DNA of 51,745 bases, taken from assembly GCA_964519415.1 (NCBI GenBank), contig CAZFJM010000001.1, forward strand, positions 34,294-86,038, read 5' to 3'. This DNA comes from Candidatus Woesearchaeota archaeon (GTDB lineage: Archaea > Nanobdellota > Nanobdellia > Pacearchaeales > GW2011-AR1). This document shows, piece by piece, positions 2,628-51,107 of this stretch. The notes beneath the pieces were generated by a model. The model made no database searches, was not told where the DNA came from, and saw nothing but the letters and a program-made list of their open reading frames with translations. Each line of letters opens with the position of its first letter. The stretch's first letter is position 1. Both the position numbers and the translations under genes were made by a program.

Positions 2628-3280
2628 TTTAATCTCCCCTCAAGAACATCTTTAGTTGTTACAAATCTAACTTTATTAGCTTTCCATTTTTCTAAAACTA
2701 AATTTGTAGCTAATGGAGTTTGTGCTAAATGTGGTAAATCCTTCATAGCATCTAGTACAGCATAAACTTTTCTACCAGCTTCAATATTTCCCATTATTGC
2801 AAAGTCATCACAAACATTTAATGCGACACCATATACTATTACACTATTTGGATTTTTTAAATTAACAACTTCTTTTGTTAATTTGTTCCCAGCAAAGGCA
2901 TCAAATTGATTTTTGTAAAGAACAATATTCCTTTCTGTCCTAACTTTGTCTTCTTCATATTTTCCATCTCTACAATCAATTACATATGGATTAAAAGGAT
3001 CTGTTGCTGGAACAAACTTTGCACCCAATGTTTCTCGCTCACAATGCATAGGATAAGTACTTACAAAATTAGGTTCTCTACTTATTTCTGCATCTCCCCA
3101 AATATGCCAATCAGCAGTATTAATTACACCATAGTTATTCTCTCTCGCATGCTGTGTAAGTCTAAGCAAATTCTCTTCTATATCTCTTGCACCTGGAACA
3201 GCTAACTTTCCCCTATAAGAATCGTCATCTCTCATAAAGTCATATTGCGTATCTACATTCCAAAATATTATTTTTTCCAT
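2624..3280 (-). CDS. pncA: Nicotinamidase / isochorismatase-family cysteine hydrolase
   Basis: 218 aa. N-terminal WNVDTQYDF (catalytic Asp context) and YGVALNVCDDF (nucleophile Cys context). 4-nt overlap with nadE; its start abuts the pncB stop. Confidence 0.75.
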   Translation of the reverse strand: MEKIIFWNVDTQYDFMRDDDSYRGKLAVPGARDIEENLLRLTQHARENNYGVINTADWHIWGDAEISREPNFVSTYPMHCERETLGAKFVPATDPFNPYVIDCRDGKYEEDKVRTERNIVLYKNQFDAFAGNKLTKEVVNLKNPNSVIVYGVALNVCDDFAIMGNIEAGRKVYAVLDAMKDLPHLAQTPLATNLVLEKWKANKVRFVTTKDVLEGRLK

Positions 3281-4548
3281 TAGTATTTACACTCCTCAGC
3301 AATATATTTAGTAGGATCATAGCCGAAAACTTGGCAATACATAGACCTCTCTTCCATTGGCCCAGTTCCTTTTGCAAGATTATCACTAAGCTTCACAGTA
3401 GGTCTTCCATTTGCTTCTACGACCTTCATAACCAAAGAAATAGGTTTAAACAAAGGTTGGAAAGATATTTTTCCAAAGTCATTCGTTAAATCTGTTCCCA
3501 AACCAGCAACTTGTTTTATTCTATTCGGAAGATAATTATTTAAGGCCACAATTTTAGGAACATTTAGACCGTCGCTAGGAACAAATAACTTCTGTGTAGG
3601 GTCTATGCCTCTTTGCTCATAGAAATCTACCTGCCTCTTCTTAAATAAGAATGGATCTGCAGAGTCTTGTCTCATACCTTTCCATTGTTCTGCTTGTTCT
3701 TGACTCATATCTCTAAAAAAGAAATCAGTTCCAAAGGTGTCTGTTAAAGCGATACTTAAAGCAGTACCATATTCGTCAGTCCATTCATTTAATACAATAT
3801 TATGCGAAGCTCTAAGGCTCTCAAGAGTATTTGCCATCATTGCTGCCCTAACCATAAAAGTCTCATGAGCCATAGTCCCCATAGGTTTTAATCCATACTT
3901 CATAGCTAAATAAACATTAGAAGTCCCAACCATATTACCTGGAACTCTCGCCTTTAACTTACCCATTACATACTCTTGATTATCAAAACTTTCTCTTCTT
4001 CTTGTTCCAAATTCCATAAAGAAAGCAGTAGGATTTTGTTCAAATAATTTTATTTTTTCTTCCAAAAGTCGGTCTCTTTGTTCAGTTAAGTAAACTAATT
4101 GATCAGGAGTCATATTTCTTTTAAGTGCTCGATATAATAGCTCATTCTCAGTAGCTAAAGCCGGAGTTTCCCAATAGATTTCATTCTTCCATAAACCTTT
4201 TACTTCCATTTCAAAGTTATCATTTAAACCACAAGTAGACATTTCTAACTTATTAGCTAAAAAATCTAAATAGTCATCTTTGAAAATAGGTCTTGCATCA
4301 TCTAACCGTAGATTAGCTAAATAGTCCAATTCAGCAGTTGTAGGCCTTACATTTTGAATTCTATCTAATTCATGCCTTAATTCTCTTCCATCAACTATGT
4401 CCGCTAAACACACATCTTTTGTTCTATTTTTCGATTTAACTGTAACTTTCACATCTGGGTGTTGATGGAAGACATATTGCCCCATCGTAAGTTTATACAT
4501 ATCAGTATCTATGAAAGATCTTGTTGTTGGTTGATATCCTTTTTCCAT
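3280..4548 (-). CDS. pncB: Nicotinate phosphoribosyltransferase
   Basis: IDTDMYKLTM near the N-terminus is the NAPRTase hallmark, and length fits. The track ORF runs to 4569 only through a GTG. The first ATG (4548, MEKGYQPTT...) lies 21-31 nt downstream of a TATA-like element, so I place the start there. Confidence 0.85.
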   Translation of the reverse strand: MEKGYQPTTRSFIDTDMYKLTMGQYVFHQHPDVKVTVKSKNRTKDVCLADIVDGRELRHELDRIQNVRPTTAELDYLANLRLDDARPIFKDDYLDFLANKLEMSTCGLNDNFEMEVKGLWKNEIYWETPALATENELLYRALKRNMTPDQLVYLTEQRDRLLEEKIKLFEQNPTAFFMEFGTRRRESFDNQEYVMGKLKARVPGNMVGTSNVYLAMKYGLKPMGTMAHETFMVRAAMMANTLESLRASHNIVLNEWTDEYGTALSIALTDTFGTDFFFRDMSQEQAEQWKGMRQDSADPFLFKKRQVDFYEQRGIDPTQKLFVPSDGLNVPKIVALNNYLPNRIKQVAGLGTDLTNDFGKISFQPLFKPISLVMKVVEANGRPTVKLSDNLAKGTGPMEERSMYCQVFGYDPTKYIAEECKY

Positions 4549-4568
4549 GAGATAGTGTATAAAATACA

Positions 4569-4579
4569 CTATTTAAACC
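4569..4579 (-). promoter_or_regulatory. TATA-like promoter element for the pncB operon (GGTTTAAATAG on the minus strand)
   Basis: Lies 21-31 nt upstream of ATG 4548. The same spacing recurs at most operon starts in this window. Confidence 0.4.
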
Positions 4580-5720: not shown

Positions 5721-8700
5721 TTTTTCACTCCTTTTGATTTAAGTAACTCATCAACTTTTCTTTTTAACTCTTGCTCTTTTCTCTCATTATGTTTATCTAA
5801 AAAAGAAAACCAAGATTCCTTAGGTTTAACATTACGTTTTTCCTTATTAATATCTACAATAAGCTTTTCATCCTCTATTTCTGCAAGACGATTATTCAAT
5901 AATTCAAAGCCTGTTCTATAATTGCTCTCAGGTATCTTCTTTTCCTTATAGAAGTCTTCTTGAATTTTTATTATCTCTTTTTCTACTTCTTTCTTTTCAT
6001 TATTTAAATCACTATCAAATTGCTCAGCAGATAAAGTTTTTACTCTTACATTTCTCAAATTAATTCTAGACTTTCTAATAATAGCCAAACGATTATTATA
6101 TTGGCTCAATCTATTATGATATTCAACAGAACTAATTTTACCAGAATAATAATTCTTTTGATTATCAGCAACAAATTTATTTAAATTATCTTCTTCGACA
6201 TCATAATCTCTAATCTGAGAAGAAATTCTTCTCTTGGAATATTGTGAATACGCAATTCTCAAAGAGATAACTAAAATAATCAATACGAATAATATTTGTG
6301 GCCAATATAAATAAACAAAAATAAATAAATTTCCTTTCTGTTCAAGCCTTAATAATAAATCTGCTTTCTTAGCTCTTTCTAAGGCAGTAACATAATCTCC
6401 CCTATCAAAAGCAGCATCAGCCATATTCAGAACATCTTCAATAGCGCTAGAATAAAATATAGTATTCTGTGTAGTATCTGACTTAACAACATTCCCAGCT
6501 AATAAATTAATGTCTTTAGGATTTTGTAATATTTGTCTAATTAAATCGATTAATCTTCTCGCTTCAAATGCTGTTTCTTTTAGTTTAATAACTTTAGAGG
6601 AGATATCATATGACTCTTTATTATGTTCATCAGATTCTAATTTTTGTCTTGCCTGTGAATATAATTGCTCTAGCTCAATAATATTGAACCCTCTTTCTTT
6701 CATAGAATTAATAGCCTCTTCTGCCAAACTTAATTCAACAAAACTTTCTTCTTTAGATATCTCTTGTATAACTAATTTAATATTTTGTGTCTCAACATAA
6801 GATTCACGACCAGTTGCACTAACTAAAGTTCCTTTTATTACTGCTTTTATAGTGTATTCTTCATAACTCTTATAACTTGGCGCAGATAAAAAGACTTCAA
6901 AAGAACCATTCTGACCATAAGCTAATCTTTCTATAAAAGAAGGACTTATCTTCAAGTATTTAGCAGGGAAACCAGTCAATTCAACACTAATATTTTCTAA
7001 AGTTTGATTAGAGTATTTATTTCCAAAAGTAATTATAAATCCTGTGTTATTTCCTCTAACAACTTCAACATTATTAGAATATACTATTGACTTTCCTCCA
7101 CCATTAGCGGAAGCACCGCCACTGCCACCACCAACAGAAGGTCCTGGAACTTCAACTACTTGAGTAACTGTTAAAGGATTTGTAATAGCAACAACTTTAG
7201 AGGCATTTGCAGAATCAGCATTCGTAGACGAAGCTAAAGCAATAACTGTTAAATTAGAATCGCTGATATTTGAAGAAACATTTATAGTGATTAAATTAGA
7301 TCCAGAACTTCCAACACCTAATGTTGCAGGGCCAGAAACCAAATTTCCAGAAACCAAATTGAATCCTTCAGGCAAACTCCAATTCAAATAAACATTTTGT
7401 GCATCCGCAGTTCCTAAATTTATAACAGTTGCAGAGAAAGTAACGTCATCTTCTCCACGAGTTACTCTAGAAGAATAAGTATCAATAGAAACAGATAAAT
7501 ATGGACCGCTTGCAGATTGAACATTTAAATTTCTCTCTATCACTTCTGTTCCAGCAGCAGAAGTTACTGTAATATTGAAAGGATACAATCCAGAAGTTAA
7601 ACCGGTCAAATTCACATACAATGGAACATATAATACTGTACCGCTAAGAGCCGTATAATTTTCAGTTTGATTCAAGGTGTTATTTAGATTAAATCTGCTT
7701 AATTCACTATCTGCAGAAATAGTAACATTATAATCTAATGAACTATCAGAAGTAGTATTTAATATTATATATCCAAGTTCATTTGAGGAAGTCCTTTGTG
7801 CATAAGTAAACGACACTATAGAACTAATGTTAGTAACAATATCCTGTGAAACATCTAAAGCAACTTCAAACGAATAATTTGCACTAATATTAGTATTACC
7901 TTGTGCATCAGTTGCATTAATATAGAAAGTCCAATTTCCAGCAGCCAAACCAATCAAAGTAGAATTATACTCTATTAAACTTGTATTTGTCATTAACTCA
8001 GAATTCCAAGAAGACCCATTATCATCACTGTAATAAACTTCAACTGAACCGATTATATAATCATCAGAAACAGACGCATTTACAGTAACATTTACTCCCG
8101 GATCCAAACTATTGAAATCTGTAGGAGTATAGCTAATACCGCTTAGCAAAGGATTTGTATCATCTAAAACTTGAACAGCACTGCTAGAACTATCATTTGT
8201 TCTTCCAGATAAATCAACTAAAAACAACTGAACAGAATAACTACCAGGAGTGTAGTTTCCCTCTGTAAAAAGATAATTTACACTTGCACTTGTTCCAGTC
8301 AAATCTATTTCTGAACTATTTACAAAACTTCCAGAGAAATTATAACTTAAGATGGCATAATTTAAACCCATAGCATCCGAAACCGAAGCAACACAAGTTA
8401 GATTCTTTGAAGCATTAACAGAAGAATTACAAATAAATGAACTTACTGCAGGATTATTCAAATCAGTGTAGATAGTGACATTTCTGCTACCCTGATTTTT
8501 GTTAGTTGAAGTATCATTAGCATAAAATTCAATTATATGCTCTCCTTCAGTCAAAGTTATTGTTTTATTCCAGTCTACCAAACTAACATTACCTAAATCA
8601 ACTAGAGATCCAGTAGCATTTCTATATCCTGCCCAACTAAGATTCTTGTCTGAAGTAATATTCAATAAGGTACTTGCAGAAGTATAATAAGTTCCATTTA

Positions 8701-40718: not shown

Positions 40719-41564
40719 ATGAGAGTACGATATTCATTCTCTTCAAAGAGAACAGGCCATATTGAAAATATGGAGAAACAACGAAAGAAATATCCAGACA
40801 TAGTCGCAGAAATCTTAAAAGTTTCAGATATTATCTTAGAAGTTTTAGACGCTCGTTTCATTGATGACACTAGAAATACAGACTTGGAAGAAGCTGTAAA
40901 AAAAAGCGGTAAAAAGTTATTTTATATTTTAAACAAATGCGATCTAGTAGATTTAGCAGCTAAGAAAAAAGAAATGAAAGAAAAAGGGTTGTATCCTTAT
41001 GTTTTAATTTCGTGTACAACAAGAAAAGGAGCAAGAGAACTTAGAACAAAACTAAAAATAGAAGCTAAAAGAGTTGAACTACCTCACGAAGAAATGAGAA
41101 GAGTTCAAGTAGGAATTGTAGGATATCCAAACACAGGAAAGTCTTCTTTGATTAATTTTTTAGCAGGCAGCACAGCAGCTAAAGTTGGTGCAGAAGCCGG
41201 CTTCACAAAATCAATGCAAAAAATAAGATTAAGTGCGGACATTTTAATTTTAGACACACCAGGAGTTATTCCTGCAAAAGACTACTCTCATCAAAAACAA
41301 GATATGATTAGCCAACATGCAAAAATAAGTGCACGAGATGCAAATAAAGTAAAAAGACCAGATGTAGTAATCCAAACAATAATGAACGAATACGGCCCAA
41401 TTATAGAAAAATACTATGGAGTTGACGTTCACGGTGACGGAGATTTATTAATTGAAGAAGTTGGAAGAAAAAGAAATCTTCTAAAAAGAGGCGGGGTTGT
41501 CGATGAAGATCGTTCTGCTAGAGAAATTCTCAAAGACTGGCAAGAAGGAAAAATTAAAATATAA
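40719..41564 (+). CDS. Circularly permuted GTPase (YlqF/RbgA-YawG type ribosome-biogenesis GTPase)
   Basis: 281 aa. Permuted motif order: NKCDL (G4), then GYPNTGKSSLIN (G1), then DTPG (G3). TATA-like TTATATAT (40691..40698) lies 21-28 nt upstream. Confidence 0.8.
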   Translation: MRVRYSFSSKRTGHIENMEKQRKKYPDIVAEILKVSDIILEVLDARFIDDTRNTDLEEAVKKSGKKLFYILNKCDLVDLAAKKKEMKEKGLYPYVLISCTTRKGARELRTKLKIEAKRVELPHEEMRRVQVGIVGYPNTGKSSLINFLAGSTAAKVGAEAGFTKSMQKIRLSADILILDTPGVIPAKDYSHQKQDMISQHAKISARDANKVKRPDVVIQTIMNEYGPIIEKYYGVDVHGDGDLLIEEVGRKRNLLKRGGVVDEDRSAREILKDWQEGKIKI

Positions 41565-43492: not shown

Positions 43493-44623
43493 ATGTCAAA
43501 AAGAGGAAAAAAGAACGTTTATCTTCTAGGAGCATCCAGCTTACTCAATGATATGGGTAGTGAGATGATTACACCAATTCTCCCATTTTTTATTCAATCT
43601 TTAGGCGGCGGAGGCCTAGCAACGGGTTTGATTAGTGGTTTAAGAGAGGGCATTTCAAGTTTACTAAAATTATTCGGGGGTTGGCTTTCAGACAAAAAAG
43701 GTAGCAGAATAGGAATCGTTTTCTTTGGTTATGTTATGTCTGCAATTTTAAAGTTATTTATTGGAGTTGCACAAACTTCCACACAAATTATTAGCTTTGT
43801 TTCTTTAGAAAGAGTAGGAAAAATTAGAGACGCACCCAGAGATGCAATAATTGCCAGAACGAATAAAGATCGTGGAAAAGCATTCGGACTGCATGAAATG
43901 TTTGACAAAGCCGGAGGAGTTCTAGGAACGATATTAGTATTAGTTTTATTCTGGGCACTAAACTTAGATTTCAGATCAATAACTTTAATTGCTGCAGGAA
44001 TATCATTATTTTCAATTATTCCATTATTTATGGTAACTGACACCAAATCTACGAAAATAAAAACAAACTTATTCCAAAGCATAAAAAAATTAGAAGCTAA
44101 CCTAAAGGGCATGATTCTAATACTTGGACTATTTGCAATCGTAAATTTTGGTTTAGCTATGTTCTTTTTATTAAGAGTCAAAGAAGTAACCGGCAGTTCA
44201 ATAGCTCCCCTATTCTTATATATCTTATTCAATCTTATGAATGCAATATTTGCAGAAAGAATTGGAAGATATTCTAACAGTTTTGGAAAAAGAAAGATTA
44301 TAATTGCAGGATATTTATTATTCTCCGCAATTTGTTTAGGATTTATCTTTGCTAATAGTTTATTATTAGTAGCAATATTATTTAGTTTATATGGAATAAT
44401 GAGTGCAATGACTGGGCCAGTTCAAAGATCTTTAATTGCAGATTTATCTGGAAAAGAAAAAGGTACAGCAATGGGTCTTTACTATTTCTCTATTGGATTA
44501 GCTACTGTAATTGGAGGAATAATCGCAGGTTATATATGGGATTTAAATACTAGCTTGATGTATTATTATTTAGCATCATTAAGCATAATATTCACAATTA
44601 TGTTTTACAAATATACAAAATAA
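43493..44623 (+). CDS. MFS transporter
   Basis: 376 aa, about 10-12 TM. GGWLSDKKGSRIG matches the MFS loop 2-3 motif (G-x-L-x-D-[RK]-x-G-[RK]-[RK]). Confidence 0.75.
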   Translation: MSKRGKKNVYLLGASSLLNDMGSEMITPILPFFIQSLGGGGLATGLISGLREGISSLLKLFGGWLSDKKGSRIGIVFFGYVMSAILKLFIGVAQTSTQIISFVSLERVGKIRDAPRDAIIARTNKDRGKAFGLHEMFDKAGGVLGTILVLVLFWALNLDFRSITLIAAGISLFSIIPLFMVTDTKSTKIKTNLFQSIKKLEANLKGMILILGLFAIVNFGLAMFFLLRVKEVTGSSIAPLFLYILFNLMNAIFAERIGRYSNSFGKRKIIIAGYLLFSAICLGFIFANSLLLVAILFSLYGIMSAMTGPVQRSLIADLSGKEKGTAMGLYYFSIGLATVIGGIIAGYIWDLNTSLMYYYLASLSIIFTIMFYKYTK

Positions 44624-44640: not shown

Positions 44641-45492
44641 ATGAAAAACGACATTCCAAAAATAGAAAAGGTGATTAAAGAAAAAGAGTGTATAGCCTTG
44701 CTTGCACCAAGTTTCATAGCTGAATTTGATTATCCAGAAATTATTATTGCACTAAAAAAACTCGGCTTCAAAAAAGTTACAGAACTAACATTTGGAGCAA
44801 AAATGGTTAACAGAAACTACCATGAAATTCTAAAAGAGAATAAAATGTTTATCTCAACAGCTTGCCCAGGAATAACATATTTTATTGAAACAAACTATCC
44901 TGAATTTAAAAATAATCTTGTAAAAGTAGATAGCCCAATGATTGCCACAGCAAAAATTTGCAAAAAGAATTTTCCAAAATACACAAGAATTTTTATCTCC
45001 CCATGCAGTTTCAAAAAACAAGAAGCAGAATCTTCAAAATATATAGATTACATAATTGACTATCAACAATTAAAACAACTATTCACGAAAAATAAAATTT
45101 CAGTTAAGAAAACTCCAAATGGAAACGTTGAGAAATTTGATTGTTTGTATAATGACTATACAAAGATATATCCTGTTGCAGGAGGACTAAGCAAAACAGC
45201 TCATTTGAAAGGAATTCTCAAAAAAAGCGAAGTGAAAATAATTGATGGAGTAGAAAAAGTAAGAAAATACCTTGATAATTATAAGAAGAAACCTGATAAG
45301 AAAATAAGATTCTTAGACATAAACTTCTGTGAAAATGGATGTCTAGGAGGCCCATTTATAGGAAAGGATAAAACTCCTTCTAAAAAAATGAAAAGAATCC
45401 AAGATTATATGAAATTCTCAAAAAAGGCTTCAATAAAAGAAAACAACAAAGGTTGGATAAAAAAAGCCGAAGGAATAAATTTTAGAAAATAA
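44641..45492 (+). CDS. Minimal [FeFe]-hydrogenase-like protein (H-cluster domain only, no N-terminal ferredoxin-like domains)
   Basis: 283 aa. LAPSFIAEF; L1-like STACPGITYFIETNYPEF...VDSPM (compare TSCCPGW...SP); L2-like ISPCSFKKQEAE (compare MPCxxKxxE); YPVAGGLSKTAH (compare GGVMEAALR); L3-like DINFCENGCLGGP (compare ExMxCxxGCxxGG). All four cluster-ligand Cys positions are present, but the first Cys of the CC pair is Ala. Confidence 0.65.
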   Translation: MKNDIPKIEKVIKEKECIALLAPSFIAEFDYPEIIIALKKLGFKKVTELTFGAKMVNRNYHEILKENKMFISTACPGITYFIETNYPEFKNNLVKVDSPMIATAKICKKNFPKYTRIFISPCSFKKQEAESSKYIDYIIDYQQLKQLFTKNKISVKKTPNGNVEKFDCLYNDYTKIYPVAGGLSKTAHLKGILKKSEVKIIDGVEKVRKYLDNYKKKPDKKIRFLDINFCENGCLGGPFIGKDKTPSKKMKRIQDYMKFSKKASIKENNKGWIKKAEGINFRK

Positions 45493-45675
45493 TTACTTAA
45501 CACTTATTGCGCCAACAGGACAAGAACTTTCTGCATCTTTAGCACATGTAGCATCATCTACTTTAGCTTTCTTAACTACGGACTTTCCGCCTTTCATTTC
45601 AAAAATATCCGAACACATAGAAGCACAAGCACCACAACCAATGCATAATTTTTTATCAACTTTAACAGTTACCAT
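45493..45675 (-). CDS. Small single-cluster ferredoxin
   Basis: 60 aa. CIGCGACASMC ... CP, the pattern of mono-cluster [4Fe-4S]/[3Fe-4S] ferredoxins. Its stop directly abuts the hydrogenase-like gene stop (convergent). Confidence 0.8.
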   Translation of the reverse strand: MVTVKVDKKLCIGCGACASMCSDIFEMKGGKSVVKKAKVDDATCAKDAESSCPVGAISVK

Positions 45676-46207: not shown

Positions 46208-46241
46208 AAAAAATTAGATAAACTATTATTTATAAATATTT

Positions 46242-46779: not shown

Positions 46780-47574
46780 CTAAATCATTTCTTCAAAAAC
46801 ATCGGCTTTCTTCTGATAAAAGATACCTAGAGGGATCTTTGTATCTGGCTTAAGAGAATTATAATCAAACTCTTCAGCTTTTTTCATAGCTGCTTCAAAA
46901 TTTGTTTTATCATGTCCTTTCTCTTGTAAATTATACGTCTTCTCTTTATATCCCACATCATTATGGAAAATAACACAAGGCTGTATAACTTCGATGAAAC
47001 AAAATCCTTTATGCTTCTGAGCTTCTTCTAAAACATTTTGAACTTGAACAGGATCAGCAAAAACTCTAGCAACAAAACTTGCACCAGCTCCAATCATTAG
47101 CTTAATAGGATTAACTGGTTGTAATTTGACGCCTAAAGGGTTTGTTTTGTCTTTATAGCCCTTTTCTGTAACTGGAGAAGGCTCAGCAATAGTCAAAGCA
47201 AAAACCTGATTATTATGAACTAAATATTTTATATCTGAATTATATCTAGCCATATGAATTAAATGTTCCATCCCTTCAGCATAAGCATCACCATCACCAG
47301 AGAAAGCAAGAAGATTCAATTTAGGATTAGCAACTTTCATTCCCAAAGCGACGGGTAAAACTCTTCCGTGTAAAGAATTAACTCCTTGTAAATTCAAATA
47401 GTCGAAAATCTTCGCGTGACATCCAATTCCAGAAACCATTGCAAAATCATCTTTCTTCTTGCCCTGTTTAATCTGAGAATCTAAAAATCTCTGCACGCCA
47501 GCAAGTATCATAAAATTAAAACATCCCGGACACCATGTCGGTATTGCATTTGTTCGAATTGATTTACTGCTCAT
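46780..47574 (-). CDS. 2-oxoacid:ferredoxin oxidoreductase, beta (TPP-binding) subunit
   Basis: 264 aa. PTWCPGCFNF near the N-terminus and the TPP motif SGDGDAYAEG...NN. Confidence 0.85.
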   Translation of the reverse strand: MSSKSIRTNAIPTWCPGCFNFMILAGVQRFLDSQIKQGKKKDDFAMVSGIGCHAKIFDYLNLQGVNSLHGRVLPVALGMKVANPKLNLLAFSGDGDAYAEGMEHLIHMARYNSDIKYLVHNNQVFALTIAEPSPVTEKGYKDKTNPLGVKLQPVNPIKLMIGAGASFVARVFADPVQVQNVLEEAQKHKGFCFIEVIQPCVIFHNDVGYKEKTYNLQEKGHDKTNFEAAMKKAEEFDYNSLKPDTKIPLGIFYQKKADVFEEMI

Positions 47575-48077
47575 TTTAACACCTTCCCAAGTAAATAAGT
47601 ATCTATATATCTTCCGTCATCCGTAATCAATCCGCACTTCCTTTTACCTTCTATTTCAAGACCAAATTTTTTAGCCAATTTCCAAGAAGCTTTATTTTCA
47701 ATAGCACACTCTGCTTCAACTCGTTTAAATCCTCTTTTTTTAACTTCAGCTAATAAAATTTTAACCAAATTAGTAGCTATCCCTTGCCCTTGATAATCAG
47801 GATGAACTCCCCAACCCATTTCAGCTCTATGTCTTGTCCTTCCAGCCTTTTTAAAAAATGCAGAAACAGAACCAACAACTTTTTTTCCATCAAAAGCTAA
47901 AACAGAAAGATTATTGGAACTTTTTTTGTAACCGTCACGCATACCTAAAATTTTCTTTTTATTAGGAGCCACATTACCGCCATTATAAATCCAATTTTTC
48001 CTTTCAATTCCTTCCTTAATTAATTCAGCAACACCTTTTTCATCACCAACTTTAGCAAGCCTATAAATCAATTTCAT
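47571..48077 (-). CDS. GNAT-family N-acetyltransferase (RimJ/RimL-like) embedded in the OFOR operon
   Basis: 168 aa. WGVHPDYQGQGIATNL (acetyl-CoA-binding motif), AIENKASWKLAKKFGF-type C-terminal block. 4-nt overlaps on both sides. Confidence 0.75.
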   Translation of the reverse strand: MKLIYRLAKVGDEKGVAELIKEGIERKNWIYNGGNVAPNKKKILGMRDGYKKSSNNLSVLAFDGKKVVGSVSAFFKKAGRTRHRAEMGWGVHPDYQGQGIATNLVKILLAEVKKRGFKRVEAECAIENKASWKLAKKFGLEIEGKRKCGLITDDGRYIDTYLLGKVLK

Positions 48078-48283
48078 TTAATGCTCCTATTTATTCTAAT
48101 AGATAATATGATTAAAATAAATACATTTGCTAAAACAATAGGTTGAAATAAATTACGATAATTATCTAAAATCAAAAATAAAGTCGCAACCCAACATACA
48201 TACGGAAAATATTTTTCTGCTTTAAATAATAAAAGAGCATACGCTGCAACCAAAAAGATCAAACCAAGATAACCAATAATCAT
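48074..48283 (-). CDS. Tiny 2-TM membrane protein embedded in the OFOR operon
   Basis: 69 aa with two hydrophobic helices. 4-nt overlaps with the OFOR alpha stop and the GNAT start. Confidence 0.45.
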   Translation of the reverse strand: MIIGYLGLIFLVAAYALLLFKAEKYFPYVCWVATLFLILDNYRNLFQPIVLANVFILIILSIRINRSIK

Positions 48284-49812
48284 TTTAATCTCCTCCTAAT
48301 TTCTTCAGCTAATTCATCACTAAAAAAAGGTCTTCCATCATACCTTAAAATTTTATTTTTATCTTCAATTAACACGCCCGTCTTTTCAGCAACTAATCTA
48401 CTCAAAGGACTTTCAGAATTGTTTTCAACAACTAAAACTTTCTTAGCCTTGCCTATTGTTTCTTTAATTTGCTTTGTTGGAAATGGATTCATATATAAAA
48501 CTTGAACAAACTTAGCATCGATTTTATTCTCATTTAAAGCATCTAAAATCGCACCTTTAGTTGAACCCCAAGATAAAATTAAATTCTTAGAATTTTTATT
48601 TCCATAAACTTTAACCTGCTCAAACTTTTCAGACTCTTTTATAATTTCCTTTTCTTTTTTCATTCTAGCATCAAAGTTTGCCTTAATAACTTCAGCATCT
48701 TCAGTAGCAATATTTTCTTGTTTAGTATCTCTTTCATAACTATTAAATCTCTCTCCAACTTTCACAGAGCTCTTAACTTCTTTAATAGACTTCAATGATT
48801 TTTCTTTATCAAATAAAGACTTACCCTCTCCAAGATGTTTATCAGTCAAAACAATTGAAGGAACCCTATATTTCTGTGAAAAATAAAACGCATCATTTGT
48901 AAGTTTAACACTCTCTTCATTATCTCCCGGAGCTAAAACCATTCTAAAAAACTCACCATGCCCGGCATGTAAAGCCATATTCAAATCACCTTGTGAAGTA
49001 TATGTTGCAACACCCGTTCCAGGCCCAGGTCTTTGTGCCAAATAGAAAACTATTGGAACTTCTGCTTGTGCAATAAAACTCAAACTCTCAGCCATTAAAT
49101 CGAATCCACCCCCTGCAGTTCCAACCATAACTCTTTTCCCAACAACAGCAGAACCAACTCCAACTAAAGCTGCAGCAATTTCATTTTCAACTTCAATAAC
49201 TTTATGCTTATTCCCTTTGTCAAGTTGCATCGTTCCCAATTCCATCATCAAAGGAGTAGCAGGAGTCATAGGGTAAGCATAATATAAATCCAAACCAGAT
49301 TTAAGAGCAGAAAAAGCAGTAGCTTCGCTTCCATTAAATAAAGCTAATTTATGTCCAGCTTTCTTAATCTTAAATTTCAAAGAACGGCCATTATGTGCAT
49401 AACCTTCTTTTGCATCTTTCAAATTCTCCTCAAGTTTTCCATAATTCTTAAGCTCATTCTCTAAAATAGAAAAAGGAATTTCAAGAATCTTAAACAAAAC
49501 ACCTGCGAAATAAGTATTTCCTTTTCCCTGAACAAAATCAACAACAATTGCATCTTTAGCTAAATCTTTCTTATGCACCTTAGAAGTATTCTCATCTAAA
49601 CAAACCATCACATCAACTTTTGAAGTATTACTGTAAACAGGACTATCTGAAAAGCTAACTTGATTGAAATTATGTCCTCCTCTAATCAAAGACTGATAAT
49701 CTCTTGAATAAAAAACATAATATCCTTCTTTTAACAAAGCATTCGCAAGAAGCTCACTCAAAAAATTAGGGCCTTGTCCAGCCTTACCACCAATAAGAAT
49801 CTCGCACCTCAT
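48280..49812 (-). CDS. 2-oxoacid:ferredoxin oxidoreductase, fused gamma-alpha subunit
   Basis: 510 aa. N-terminal gamma-type IGGKAGQG...LIRGGHN, then alpha-type NGSEATAFSALKSGLDLYYAYPMTPAT. Confidence 0.85.
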   Translation of the reverse strand: MRCEILIGGKAGQGPNFLSELLANALLKEGYYVFYSRDYQSLIRGGHNFNQVSFSDSPVYSNTSKVDVMVCLDENTSKVHKKDLAKDAIVVDFVQGKGNTYFAGVLFKILEIPFSILENELKNYGKLEENLKDAKEGYAHNGRSLKFKIKKAGHKLALFNGSEATAFSALKSGLDLYYAYPMTPATPLMMELGTMQLDKGNKHKVIEVENEIAAALVGVGSAVVGKRVMVGTAGGGFDLMAESLSFIAQAEVPIVFYLAQRPGPGTGVATYTSQGDLNMALHAGHGEFFRMVLAPGDNEESVKLTNDAFYFSQKYRVPSIVLTDKHLGEGKSLFDKEKSLKSIKEVKSSVKVGERFNSYERDTKQENIATEDAEVIKANFDARMKKEKEIIKESEKFEQVKVYGNKNSKNLILSWGSTKGAILDALNENKIDAKFVQVLYMNPFPTKQIKETIGKAKKVLVVENNSESPLSRLVAEKTGVLIEDKNKILRYDGRPFFSDELAEEIRRRLK

Positions 49813-49856: not shown

Positions 49857-51107
49857 TTAACTCAATCCTTCAATAGAGTCAACACAAAGAATATTATTTT
49901 TCTTCAACAAATCTTTAGCCTTCTGAACAGACTTTCCACCTAAAAATACACCAATTACTTTCTTATTCTTATTTTCCTTACTAAATTCAATAATCTTCCA
50001 AGCTATATCTTCGTTATCAGACATACTCTGCGGAGTTACAATCACATACAAATTTTCAAATTTTAACTTCTTTATCTCGTCAAACGCTTTAGCGTAATCT
50101 TCAGACCGCGCAGTTCCTAAAATATCCATTGGCTTTTCAATCAAATCGATTCCTTTTCTAGATAAATGGTCAGAAAGCAAAACTCCTGCACCGCCCGCAT
50201 TTGTTAAAATAAAAGAATCACCTTGAGGCATTTTTACCTTTTCATAACTAATCTTCTTACCACTTGCCTTCTCAAACATCTCTAAGAAACTATCGCACTG
50301 AATAACTCCTGCCTGTTTGAAAACTCCTTTGTAAATTGCATAATCAGACGCAACACTTGCAGTATGACTTATCGCCGCTTTCTCGCCTACAGAAGAACTT
50401 CCGCCCTTAATTGCATAAATCTTTTTTCCACGCTTAATCGCCTTCTTACAAACACTAATGAACTCTTGCCCATCCTTAAACTTCTCAACATATAATACAA
50501 TAGAACTAGTATTCTTATCTTTTGAGAAATATTTAATGAAATCATTGAAGTCTAGATTCTCCATATTCCCCAAACTAGCAAAATTAGAAAACCCAAAGTC
50601 ACCATAATCAGAAATATAGCTCCATAAAGCTCCAGACTGACTAATAAACGCAATTTTACCATTTCTAGGCATAGTTGAAGCAAAAGTCAAATCTAACTTC
50701 CTAGAAGGATTACAAATTCCAAAACAATTAGTTCCCAAAAATTTCAAATCATATTTTTTAGCAATCTTAATCAACTTTTCAGGATCCTCTTCGCCTTCTG
50801 AAAACCCGGAACTAATAATAATCACATTTCTTGTCTTCTTCTTACCACATTCTTCTAAAGATTGAGCTACAAACTTAGCCGGAATTGCAATAACTGCCAA
50901 ATCAATATTTCCTCCGAAATCTAGAACCGACTTATAGCATTTTTTCCCAAAAAGAAAATCATGTGAAACATTAACCGGAATAACTTCAAGCTTACTAGCC
51001 AAAACTTTCTTCATTAAAATACCTCCGACCTTATCCAAATGATCAGATGCACCTATAATTGCAATCGTTCTAGGATTAAAAAAATCACTCAAATCTCCTT
51101 TTCTCAT
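49857..51107 (-). CDS. ADP-forming acetyl-CoA synthetase alpha-type protein (CoA-binding + ligase-CoA domains); no ATP-grasp beta part in the window
   Basis: 416 aa. PRTIAIIGAS (CoA-binding Rossmann), ISQSGAL, and AISHTASVAS (phosphohistidine-loop-like SHTG/A). Confidence 0.75.
   Translation of the reverse strand: MRKGDLSDFFNPRTIAIIGASDHLDKVGGILMKKVLASKLEVIPVNVSHDFLFGKKCYKSVLDFGGNIDLAVIAIPAKFVAQSLEECGKKKTRNVIIISSGFSEGEEDPEKLIKIAKKYDLKFLGTNCFGICNPSRKLDLTFASTMPRNGKIAFISQSGALWSYISDYGDFGFSNFASLGNMENLDFNDFIKYFSKDKNTSSIVLYVEKFKDGQEFISVCKKAIKRGKKIYAIKGGSSSVGEKAAISHTASVASDYAIYKGVFKQAGVIQCDSFLEMFEKASGKKISYEKVKMPQGDSFILTNAGGAGVLLSDHLSRKGIDLIEKPMDILGTARSEDYAKAFDEIKKLKFENLYVIVTPQSMSDNEDIAWKIIEFSKENKNKKVIGVFLGGKSVQKAKDLLKKNNILCVDSIEGLS

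Follow-up and report, generated by a model that had tools for sequence, protein, structure and literature searches.

The window, a 51,745-nucleotide stretch of DNA from a Candidatus Woesearchaeota archaeon, carries at positions 44641..45675 two genes: one, as judged from its sequence, almost certainly for a group E ultraminimal [FeFe] hydrogenase, and the other for a small ferredoxin. The hydrogenase gene is an ordinary further member of this published group rather than a separate variant. The combined reading, group E membership plus a fermentative role, is likely, as is an H2-evolving function in vivo taken by itself. The source genome is a freshwater metagenome-assembled genome of the Woesearchaeota type (GTDB Nanoarchaeota) of 0.74 Mb in 61 contigs, which is 80% complete; the G+C content of the window is ~31%. 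The features that bear on this reading are listed in Table 1.

Table 1. Features in and around the hydrogenase gene. Positions count from the first letter of the window and residues from the first residue of the hydrogenase or, for the ferredoxin cysteines, of the ferredoxin.
Feature	Position	Strand	Evidence
MFS transporter	43493..44623	+	MFS_1 4.4e-35; ends 17 nt before the hydrogenase start
Predicted group E ultraminimal [FeFe] hydrogenase gene, 283 aa, H-domain only	44641..45492	+	Intact ORF, PF02906
Ala22-Pro23-Ser24	44704..44712	+	Aligned to IAPAV of 7p5h_A; invariant in 25/25 sequences
Motif L1 STACPG, residues 72-77	44854..44871	+	CpI alignment: Cys75 = [4Fe-4S]H ligand C300, Ala74 at proton-relay C299
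Motif L2 SPCSFKKQEAE, residues 120-130	44998..45030	+	Cys122 = C355, Lys125 = K358, Glu128 = E361, Ser120 replaces M353
Motif L3 FCENGCLGGP, residues 229-238	45325..45354	+	Cys230 = C499, Cys234 = C503
Mono-cluster [4Fe-4S] ferredoxin, 60 aa	45493..45675	-	Fer4_13 3.1e-14; Cys11, 14, 17, 52, plus Cys21/Cys44
OFOR beta subunit	46780..47574	-	TPP_enzyme_C, PFO_beta_C
OFOR alpha/gamma fusion subunit	48280..49812	-	POR, POR_N, PFOR_II
ADP-forming acetyl-CoA synthetase (ACD) alpha-like subunit	49857..51107	-	By similarity; family of ACD-like neighbours in 8 loci

Profile search with the iron-hydrogenase large-subunit C-terminal domain model (Fe_hyd_lg_C, PF02906) matched residues 16-238 of the protein to positions 2-245 of the 245-position profile, with an E-value of 1.1e-39 and a score of 137 bits. 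It is the sole significant domain in the Pfam scan of the protein, which showed no accessory Fe-S, PAS, kinase or output domain, in agreement with the H-domain-only architecture proposed in an earlier note on this DNA. Among the NCBIfam models, the protein matches best the C-terminal half of the group B1 model, with 138.7 bits, far under its cut-off of 450, and the group A model gave about half of that score (65.8 bits). The structure predicted by AlphaFold2 from an alignment of 25 relatives is confident, with a pLDDT of 83.7 and a pTM of 0.85. Structural similarity search against the PDB using Foldseek revealed that the best 50 matches are all [FeFe] hydrogenases, including CbA5H, HydABC, CpI, DdH and CrHydA1, with a probability of 1.00 and TMq values of 0.69-0.77. 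HydA1 of Chlamydomonas reinhardtii (group A, M1), with a TMq of about 0.70, likewise consists of the H-domain only, and ferredoxin must dock directly at its [4Fe-4S]H. Compared to HydA1, which has 457 residues, the window protein is ~170 residues shorter, with shortened loops, and it lacks the proton-transfer residues that HydA1, as a group A enzyme, keeps. Comparison with two orthologues yielded dN/dS ratios of 0.05 and 0.07; the gene is under strong purifying selection.

Residue numbering was transferred by HMMER alignments to solved structures (CpI and the Thermotoga HydA chain 7p5h_A). The three H-cluster signature motifs and the GG-x-x-x-A helix noticed earlier are all in place, the helix as AGGLSKTA at residues 180-187, the four cysteines align with the H-cluster ligands of CpI, and the residues in contact with the CN ligands are intact as well. 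The cysteines would ligate the [4Fe-4S] cluster of the active site and, via Cys234, the 2Fe subcluster; the CpI counterpart C503 is the cysteine that bridges to the latter. Similarly, Ala22-Pro23-Ser24 presumably corresponds to the APS stretch of CpI beside the proximal CN ligand, as the alignment to Thermotoga HydA suggests. Throughout the 189 relatives compared, C75, C122, C230, C234, K125, E128 and S98-P99 (S323-P324 in the transferred numbering) are invariant, and the same ligand and contact positions are also invariant across the compared E-, C-, B- and A-type sequences.

The replacement of the proton-relay cysteine by alanine, already read from the letters in the earlier note, was confirmed by the alignment of Ala74 with CpI C299. 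The 189 relatives have Val (74), Ala (52), Thr (33) or Pro (30) at this position, and since none of them carries Cys there, the loss of C299 characterises the family as a whole and is not peculiar to the window gene. Counted by type, C299 is present in all A-type (10/10) and B-type (3/3) sequences, compared to 0/35 E-type and 0/28 C-type sequences. The methionine positions next to the cluster had been read as Ser and Phe. The first holds, with Ser120 at M353, a position occupied by Ser in 176 of the 189 relatives, whereas the second was off by one: the HMMER alignment places Asn228, directly before motif L3, at M497, and Phe229 replaces Ala498. Instead of the group A signature, TSCCP with C299 together with M353 and M497, the protein shows Ala74, Ser120 and Asn228, whereas CC, M and M stand at these positions in the group A-type genes found within the order. 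The proton route of group A is impossible in the window enzyme, as the family lacks C299, S319 and, usually, E282. The alternative path of group D, which involves E252 in TamHydS, was also considered and rejected, the aligned position (CpI V423 by our own mapping) being an invariant Leu183. An extra cysteine, Cys107 (44959..44961), lies in the helix that follows the SP motif and is shared by 179 of the 189 close relatives; it is missing from the CABMGN01 enzyme introduced below and present in only 16 of the 35 sequences of the wider clade.

Group E was defined by Greening et al. (Cell 2024; PMC11216029), who describe 30 sequences of H-domain-only [FeFe] hydrogenases with a mean of 286 residues and differing proton-transfer residues, known from DPANN phyla (Iain-, Micr- and Nanoarchaeota) and forming a monophyletic archaeal clade sister to group C. 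According to the same paper, the purified enzyme Fm of 'Ca. Forterrea multitransposorum' carries one [4Fe-4S] cluster and takes up synthetic [2Fe]adt, after which it displays H-cluster states in FTIR and both currents in protein film electrochemistry, with a bias to H+ reduction; a Nanoarchaeota group E enzyme, 'Na', was also expressed. Our literature search found nothing on group E beyond this paper. One of the two group E model genomes that it names is CABMGN01 sp902385635. The hydrogenase of this genome (L049, contig CABMGN010000008.1) shares 52% identity with the window protein over 278 residues, that is, over the full length, with an E-value of 7e-102.

The length of the window protein is close to the median of its 189 relatives (282 residues), and the family is large. 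A search of 5.8 billion proteins returned 978 matches, counted as clusters at 90% identity; the best 120 have 269-300 residues, and the named ones among these come from Pacearchaeota or unclassified archaeal metagenome-assembled genomes. In a scan of GTDB species genomes, 246 loci in 246 genomes were confirmed, and nearly all of the best 80 bear the titles Woesearchaeota, Pacearchaeota or Nanoarchaeota. When 1.84 billion cluster representatives were scanned in full, there were ~30 best matches mostly of 250-316 residues, plus a few shorter fragments and one protein of 4122 residues, followed in rank by proteins of 550-850 residues with the H-domain starting near residue 60. Four family members bear bacterial titles (Paceibacterota, 'bacterium' or Fusobacteriaceae): L018, on a 389-kb contig, L079, on a 237-kb contig, L068 and L073. 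These contigs are probably mislabelled or mis-binned DPANN.

Phylogenetic analysis placed the window protein in the same clade as the CABMGN01 enzyme. A first, careful tree combined 83 short proteins with ten hydrogenases of 552-576 residues that genomes of this order encode. All short proteins, the window protein and the CABMGN01 enzyme included, form one clade there with a support of 100/100, apart from the group A-type sequences. In a second, quick tree, the window protein falls into a short clade of 35 members (SH-aLRT 99) that is placed among sensory-type proteins, with the group A- and B-type sequences together elsewhere. This placement agrees with PMC11216029, where group E is described as sister to group C. 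The reference set of the trees was our own selection without Fm, and the link to this validated enzyme runs via the classification of PMC11216029 only.

Compared to the group E enzymes of CABMGN01 and Fm, the window gene is likewise H-domain only, with the four cysteines, altered proton-transfer residues, a DPANN host, OFOR genes nearby and no HydEFG, and nothing of substance differs except the local gene order. The common group E order is OFOR-alpha, OFOR-beta and hydrogenase on the same strand, whereas in the window the OFOR/ACD string is encoded on the other strand and terminates with the convergent ferredoxin. The earlier note had left a choice between the ultraminimal hydrogenases reported from DPANN archaea and a further variant. 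The identity and shared clade with the CABMGN01 enzyme decide for the former, and each of the supposed peculiarities is family-wide: the change of C299 to Ala, Ser in place of M353, and missing maturases.

The gene neighbourhood points to fermentation. The ferredoxin and the OFOR/ACD genes proposed from the letters were both borne out by profile or similarity matches, on one strand. The complete minus-strand string runs ACD alpha, OFOR alpha/gamma, a 69-residue membrane protein, a GNAT acetyltransferase, OFOR beta, a P-loop kinase-like protein, a 158-residue protein without a Pfam match, and the ferredoxin. Between the convergent hydrogenase and ferredoxin genes there is no intergenic base, and their stop codons abut (45490..45495, TAA then TTA), so that any terminator must sit inside the opposite gene. 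The layout of MFS, hydrogenase, ferredoxin and, further on, OFOR recurs in the closest relatives (L003-L005), and the position of the MFS gene upstream of the hydrogenase is confined to 5 loci, all from the closest relatives; it is possibly co-transcribed with the hydrogenase. The GNAT and membrane-protein genes between the two OFOR genes occupy 47571..48283, and the GNAT family is found in the same position in L004 and L005.

Of the 81 related loci compared, 44 have a member of the OFOR beta family beside the hydrogenase, on the same strand in 39 and within 300 nt in 21, and 36 have one of the OFOR alpha family. This is in line with PMC11216029, according to which OFOR genes are often found beside hydrogenase genes in Nanoarchaeota. 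The ferredoxin lies downstream and convergent in 8 of the 81 loci. In the source assembly, it is the only Fer4_13 match and the only small CxxCxxC protein, and no [NiFe] hydrogenase was found there.

Altogether, the OFOR/ACD/ferredoxin context, the single free ferredoxin and the lack of a [NiFe] enzyme make the reoxidation of ferredoxin with evolution of H2 the best-supported reading. Having no accessory clusters, the hydrogenase has to receive its electrons at the cubane itself, straight from a soluble carrier. We propose that the two-subunit OFOR would oxidise a 2-oxoacid to acyl-CoA and thereby reduce the 60-residue ferredoxin, that ACD would turn the acyl-CoA into acid and ATP, and that the hydrogenase would reoxidise the ferredoxin by reducing protons to H2. 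The ferredoxin is probably both the acceptor of OFOR and the donor to the hydrogenase. The partnership that the earlier note called obvious is plausible, but the adjacency on which it was based is kept only in the closest relatives.

Several observations weigh against this model. HydE and HydG are missing and HydF is unrecognisable, the proton-relay cysteine is lost as in low-activity sensory enzymes, and the ferredoxin adjoins the hydrogenase in few loci. Ferredoxins are usually acidic. The predicted pI is 9.7 for the hydrogenase and 8.6 for the ferredoxin; with both partners basic, charge complementarity is not evident and the docking mode is not obvious. In addition, the transcript record amounts to a single short contig. 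Several separate studies of fresh water and lakes have metagenomes in which the window stretch is found almost in full, and an exact 147-nt contig from one freshwater metatranscriptome falls inside the hydrogenase gene, a weak sign of transcription that could also stem from DNA carry-over. Two further metatranscriptome contigs, which match over only ~33 nt each, within the ferredoxin gene and near 46208-46240, respectively, were discarded as transcripts; their flanks are unlike the window, and they are therefore probably from other organisms.

The lack of maturases, first noticed for the window, extends to the whole genome. Profile search of the 80%-complete source genome gave no match to HydE or HydG, and for HydF only generic, weak GTPase matches of at most 51 bits. 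A GTPase at 40719..41564, a candidate for HydF with weak matches, is of the MMR_HSR1/RsgA type instead. Among the conserved neighbours in the 81 related loci, no maturase-like gene was found; the recurrent neighbours other than OFOR are, by labels that we assigned to their sequences by eye, presumably housekeeping genes (RNase Z-like, LSm, TFB, S8e, TatD and EamA). We also surveyed an even selection of 201 genomes of the order, 43 of which have a PF02906 gene above the cut-off. These genes comprise ~33 short frames of 280-320 residues (110-153 bits), so that about one sixth of the genomes carry the short, group E type, and ten long frames of 559-580 residues (~300-318 bits) with the canonical group A motifs TTCCPGW, MPCxAKKFE and EMMACPGGC (L088-L097, whose hydrogenases have 552-576 residues); one genome (G182) has both types. 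Neither HydG nor HydF exceeded the cut-off in any of the 43 hydrogenase-encoding genomes, the ten carriers of the long group A-type included. In the entire sample, HydG passed the cut-off in two genomes, neither with a PF02906 gene, and HydF in none.

The two HydG-positive genomes, G021 (L101, G021:C8:141000-156000; 5786..8450 (-) and 2823..4572 (+)) and G106 (L102, G106:C37; 3600..6282 (-)), carry a group-3-like [NiFe] hydrogenase and no [FeFe] gene. In both, HydG (562-565 bits) is followed by a fusion protein of 427-430 residues, with an N-terminal HypC-like part (47-49 bits) and a HydE part above the cut-off (267-268 bits), and in G021 this pair lies directly beside the [NiFe] small- and large-subunit genes. 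The arrangement hints that these HydG/HydE homologues may serve a [NiFe] enzyme, for which our literature search found no paper. Within the 201 genomes, [FeFe]-type genes (44 genomes) and the [NiFe] large subunit (13 genomes) never co-occur, compared to ~3 co-occurrences expected by chance.

Other readings were weighed alongside the H2-evolving one. There is a slim chance that the Woese/Pacearchaeota branch, which lies next to the sensory hydrogenases and lacks both the relay cysteine and HydEFG, obtains its 2Fe subcluster through a new maturation system or by uptake from the host, or that it uses a different cofactor state. A slimmer chance still remains for a cubane-only redox protein in vivo, loosely analogous to Nar1, in an organism that cannot make the 2Fe subcluster. 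The profile results for HydE, HydG and HydF would fit such a protein, as would the fact that group E activity is described in PMC11216029 for Fm after artificial maturation with the synthetic cofactor. However, the same paper reports that HydEFG is missing from most group E genomes and that H2-producing organisms without a full maturase set exist. Moreover, the residues that serve the 2Fe subcluster, K358 and S323-P324 across the 189 relatives and APS in 25/25 sequences, are invariant in a gene under strong purifying selection, which makes an empty pocket hard to explain.

Nar1/NARF-like scaffolds have an N-terminal cysteine cluster and have lost the 2Fe-contacting residues. A scaffold of this kind was rejected on these features: K125, S98-P99 and APS are retained, and no N-terminal cysteine motif is present, the only cysteine before C75 being C17, which is not conserved.

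The similarity to sensory hydrogenases suspected earlier proved real. The nearest relatives outside the group E clade are the H-domains of group C/D sensory proteins such as TmHydS and TamHydS. The relatives of 550-850 residues carry Fer4, the FeS domain PF04060, and PAS, histidine-kinase or sigma54-activator domains, an architecture of sensory group C type, and they too are without C299. In most members of groups C and D, Ala takes the place of this residue (PMC10407848), as it does in TmHydS and TamHydS. The window protein and the sensory type have in common a small or hydrophobic residue at C299, the loss of S319 and other residues in place of M353 and M497. A low-turnover regulatory hydrogenase that senses H2, like HydS of group C/D, would therefore be conceivable if it acted via a separate partner protein. 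Such a role is nevertheless very improbable. Whereas the sensory proteins possess an N-terminal Fer4 domain, a C-terminal FeS domain and a PAS, kinase or sigma54 output, the window protein has none of these; its conserved neighbours are OFOR subunits, often operon-like on the same strand, with no conserved regulatory gene; and Fm of the same group is biased to H+ reduction, unlike TmHydS.

A mainly H2-consuming enzyme that reduces ferredoxin with H2 from the host or the community is just as improbable: [FeFe] hydrogenases are bidirectional and Fm passes both currents in film electrochemistry, but the bias of Fm is towards H+ reduction, and the context is the oxidative, ferredoxin-reducing OFOR/ACD pathway, with no obvious ferredoxin-consuming reductive pathway in the window.

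Taken alone, the window gene adds one more member to a described family in which one enzyme, Fm, has been biochemically characterised. The family itself is far larger than the 30 sequences of the 2024 paper, with 978 clusters and 246 GTDB species genomes. The loss of C299 in all family sequences compared and the absence of HydG and HydF from all sampled genomes with a hydrogenase sharpen two questions that PMC11216029 raises for the family, namely how the enzyme is matured and how protons are delivered to its active site.
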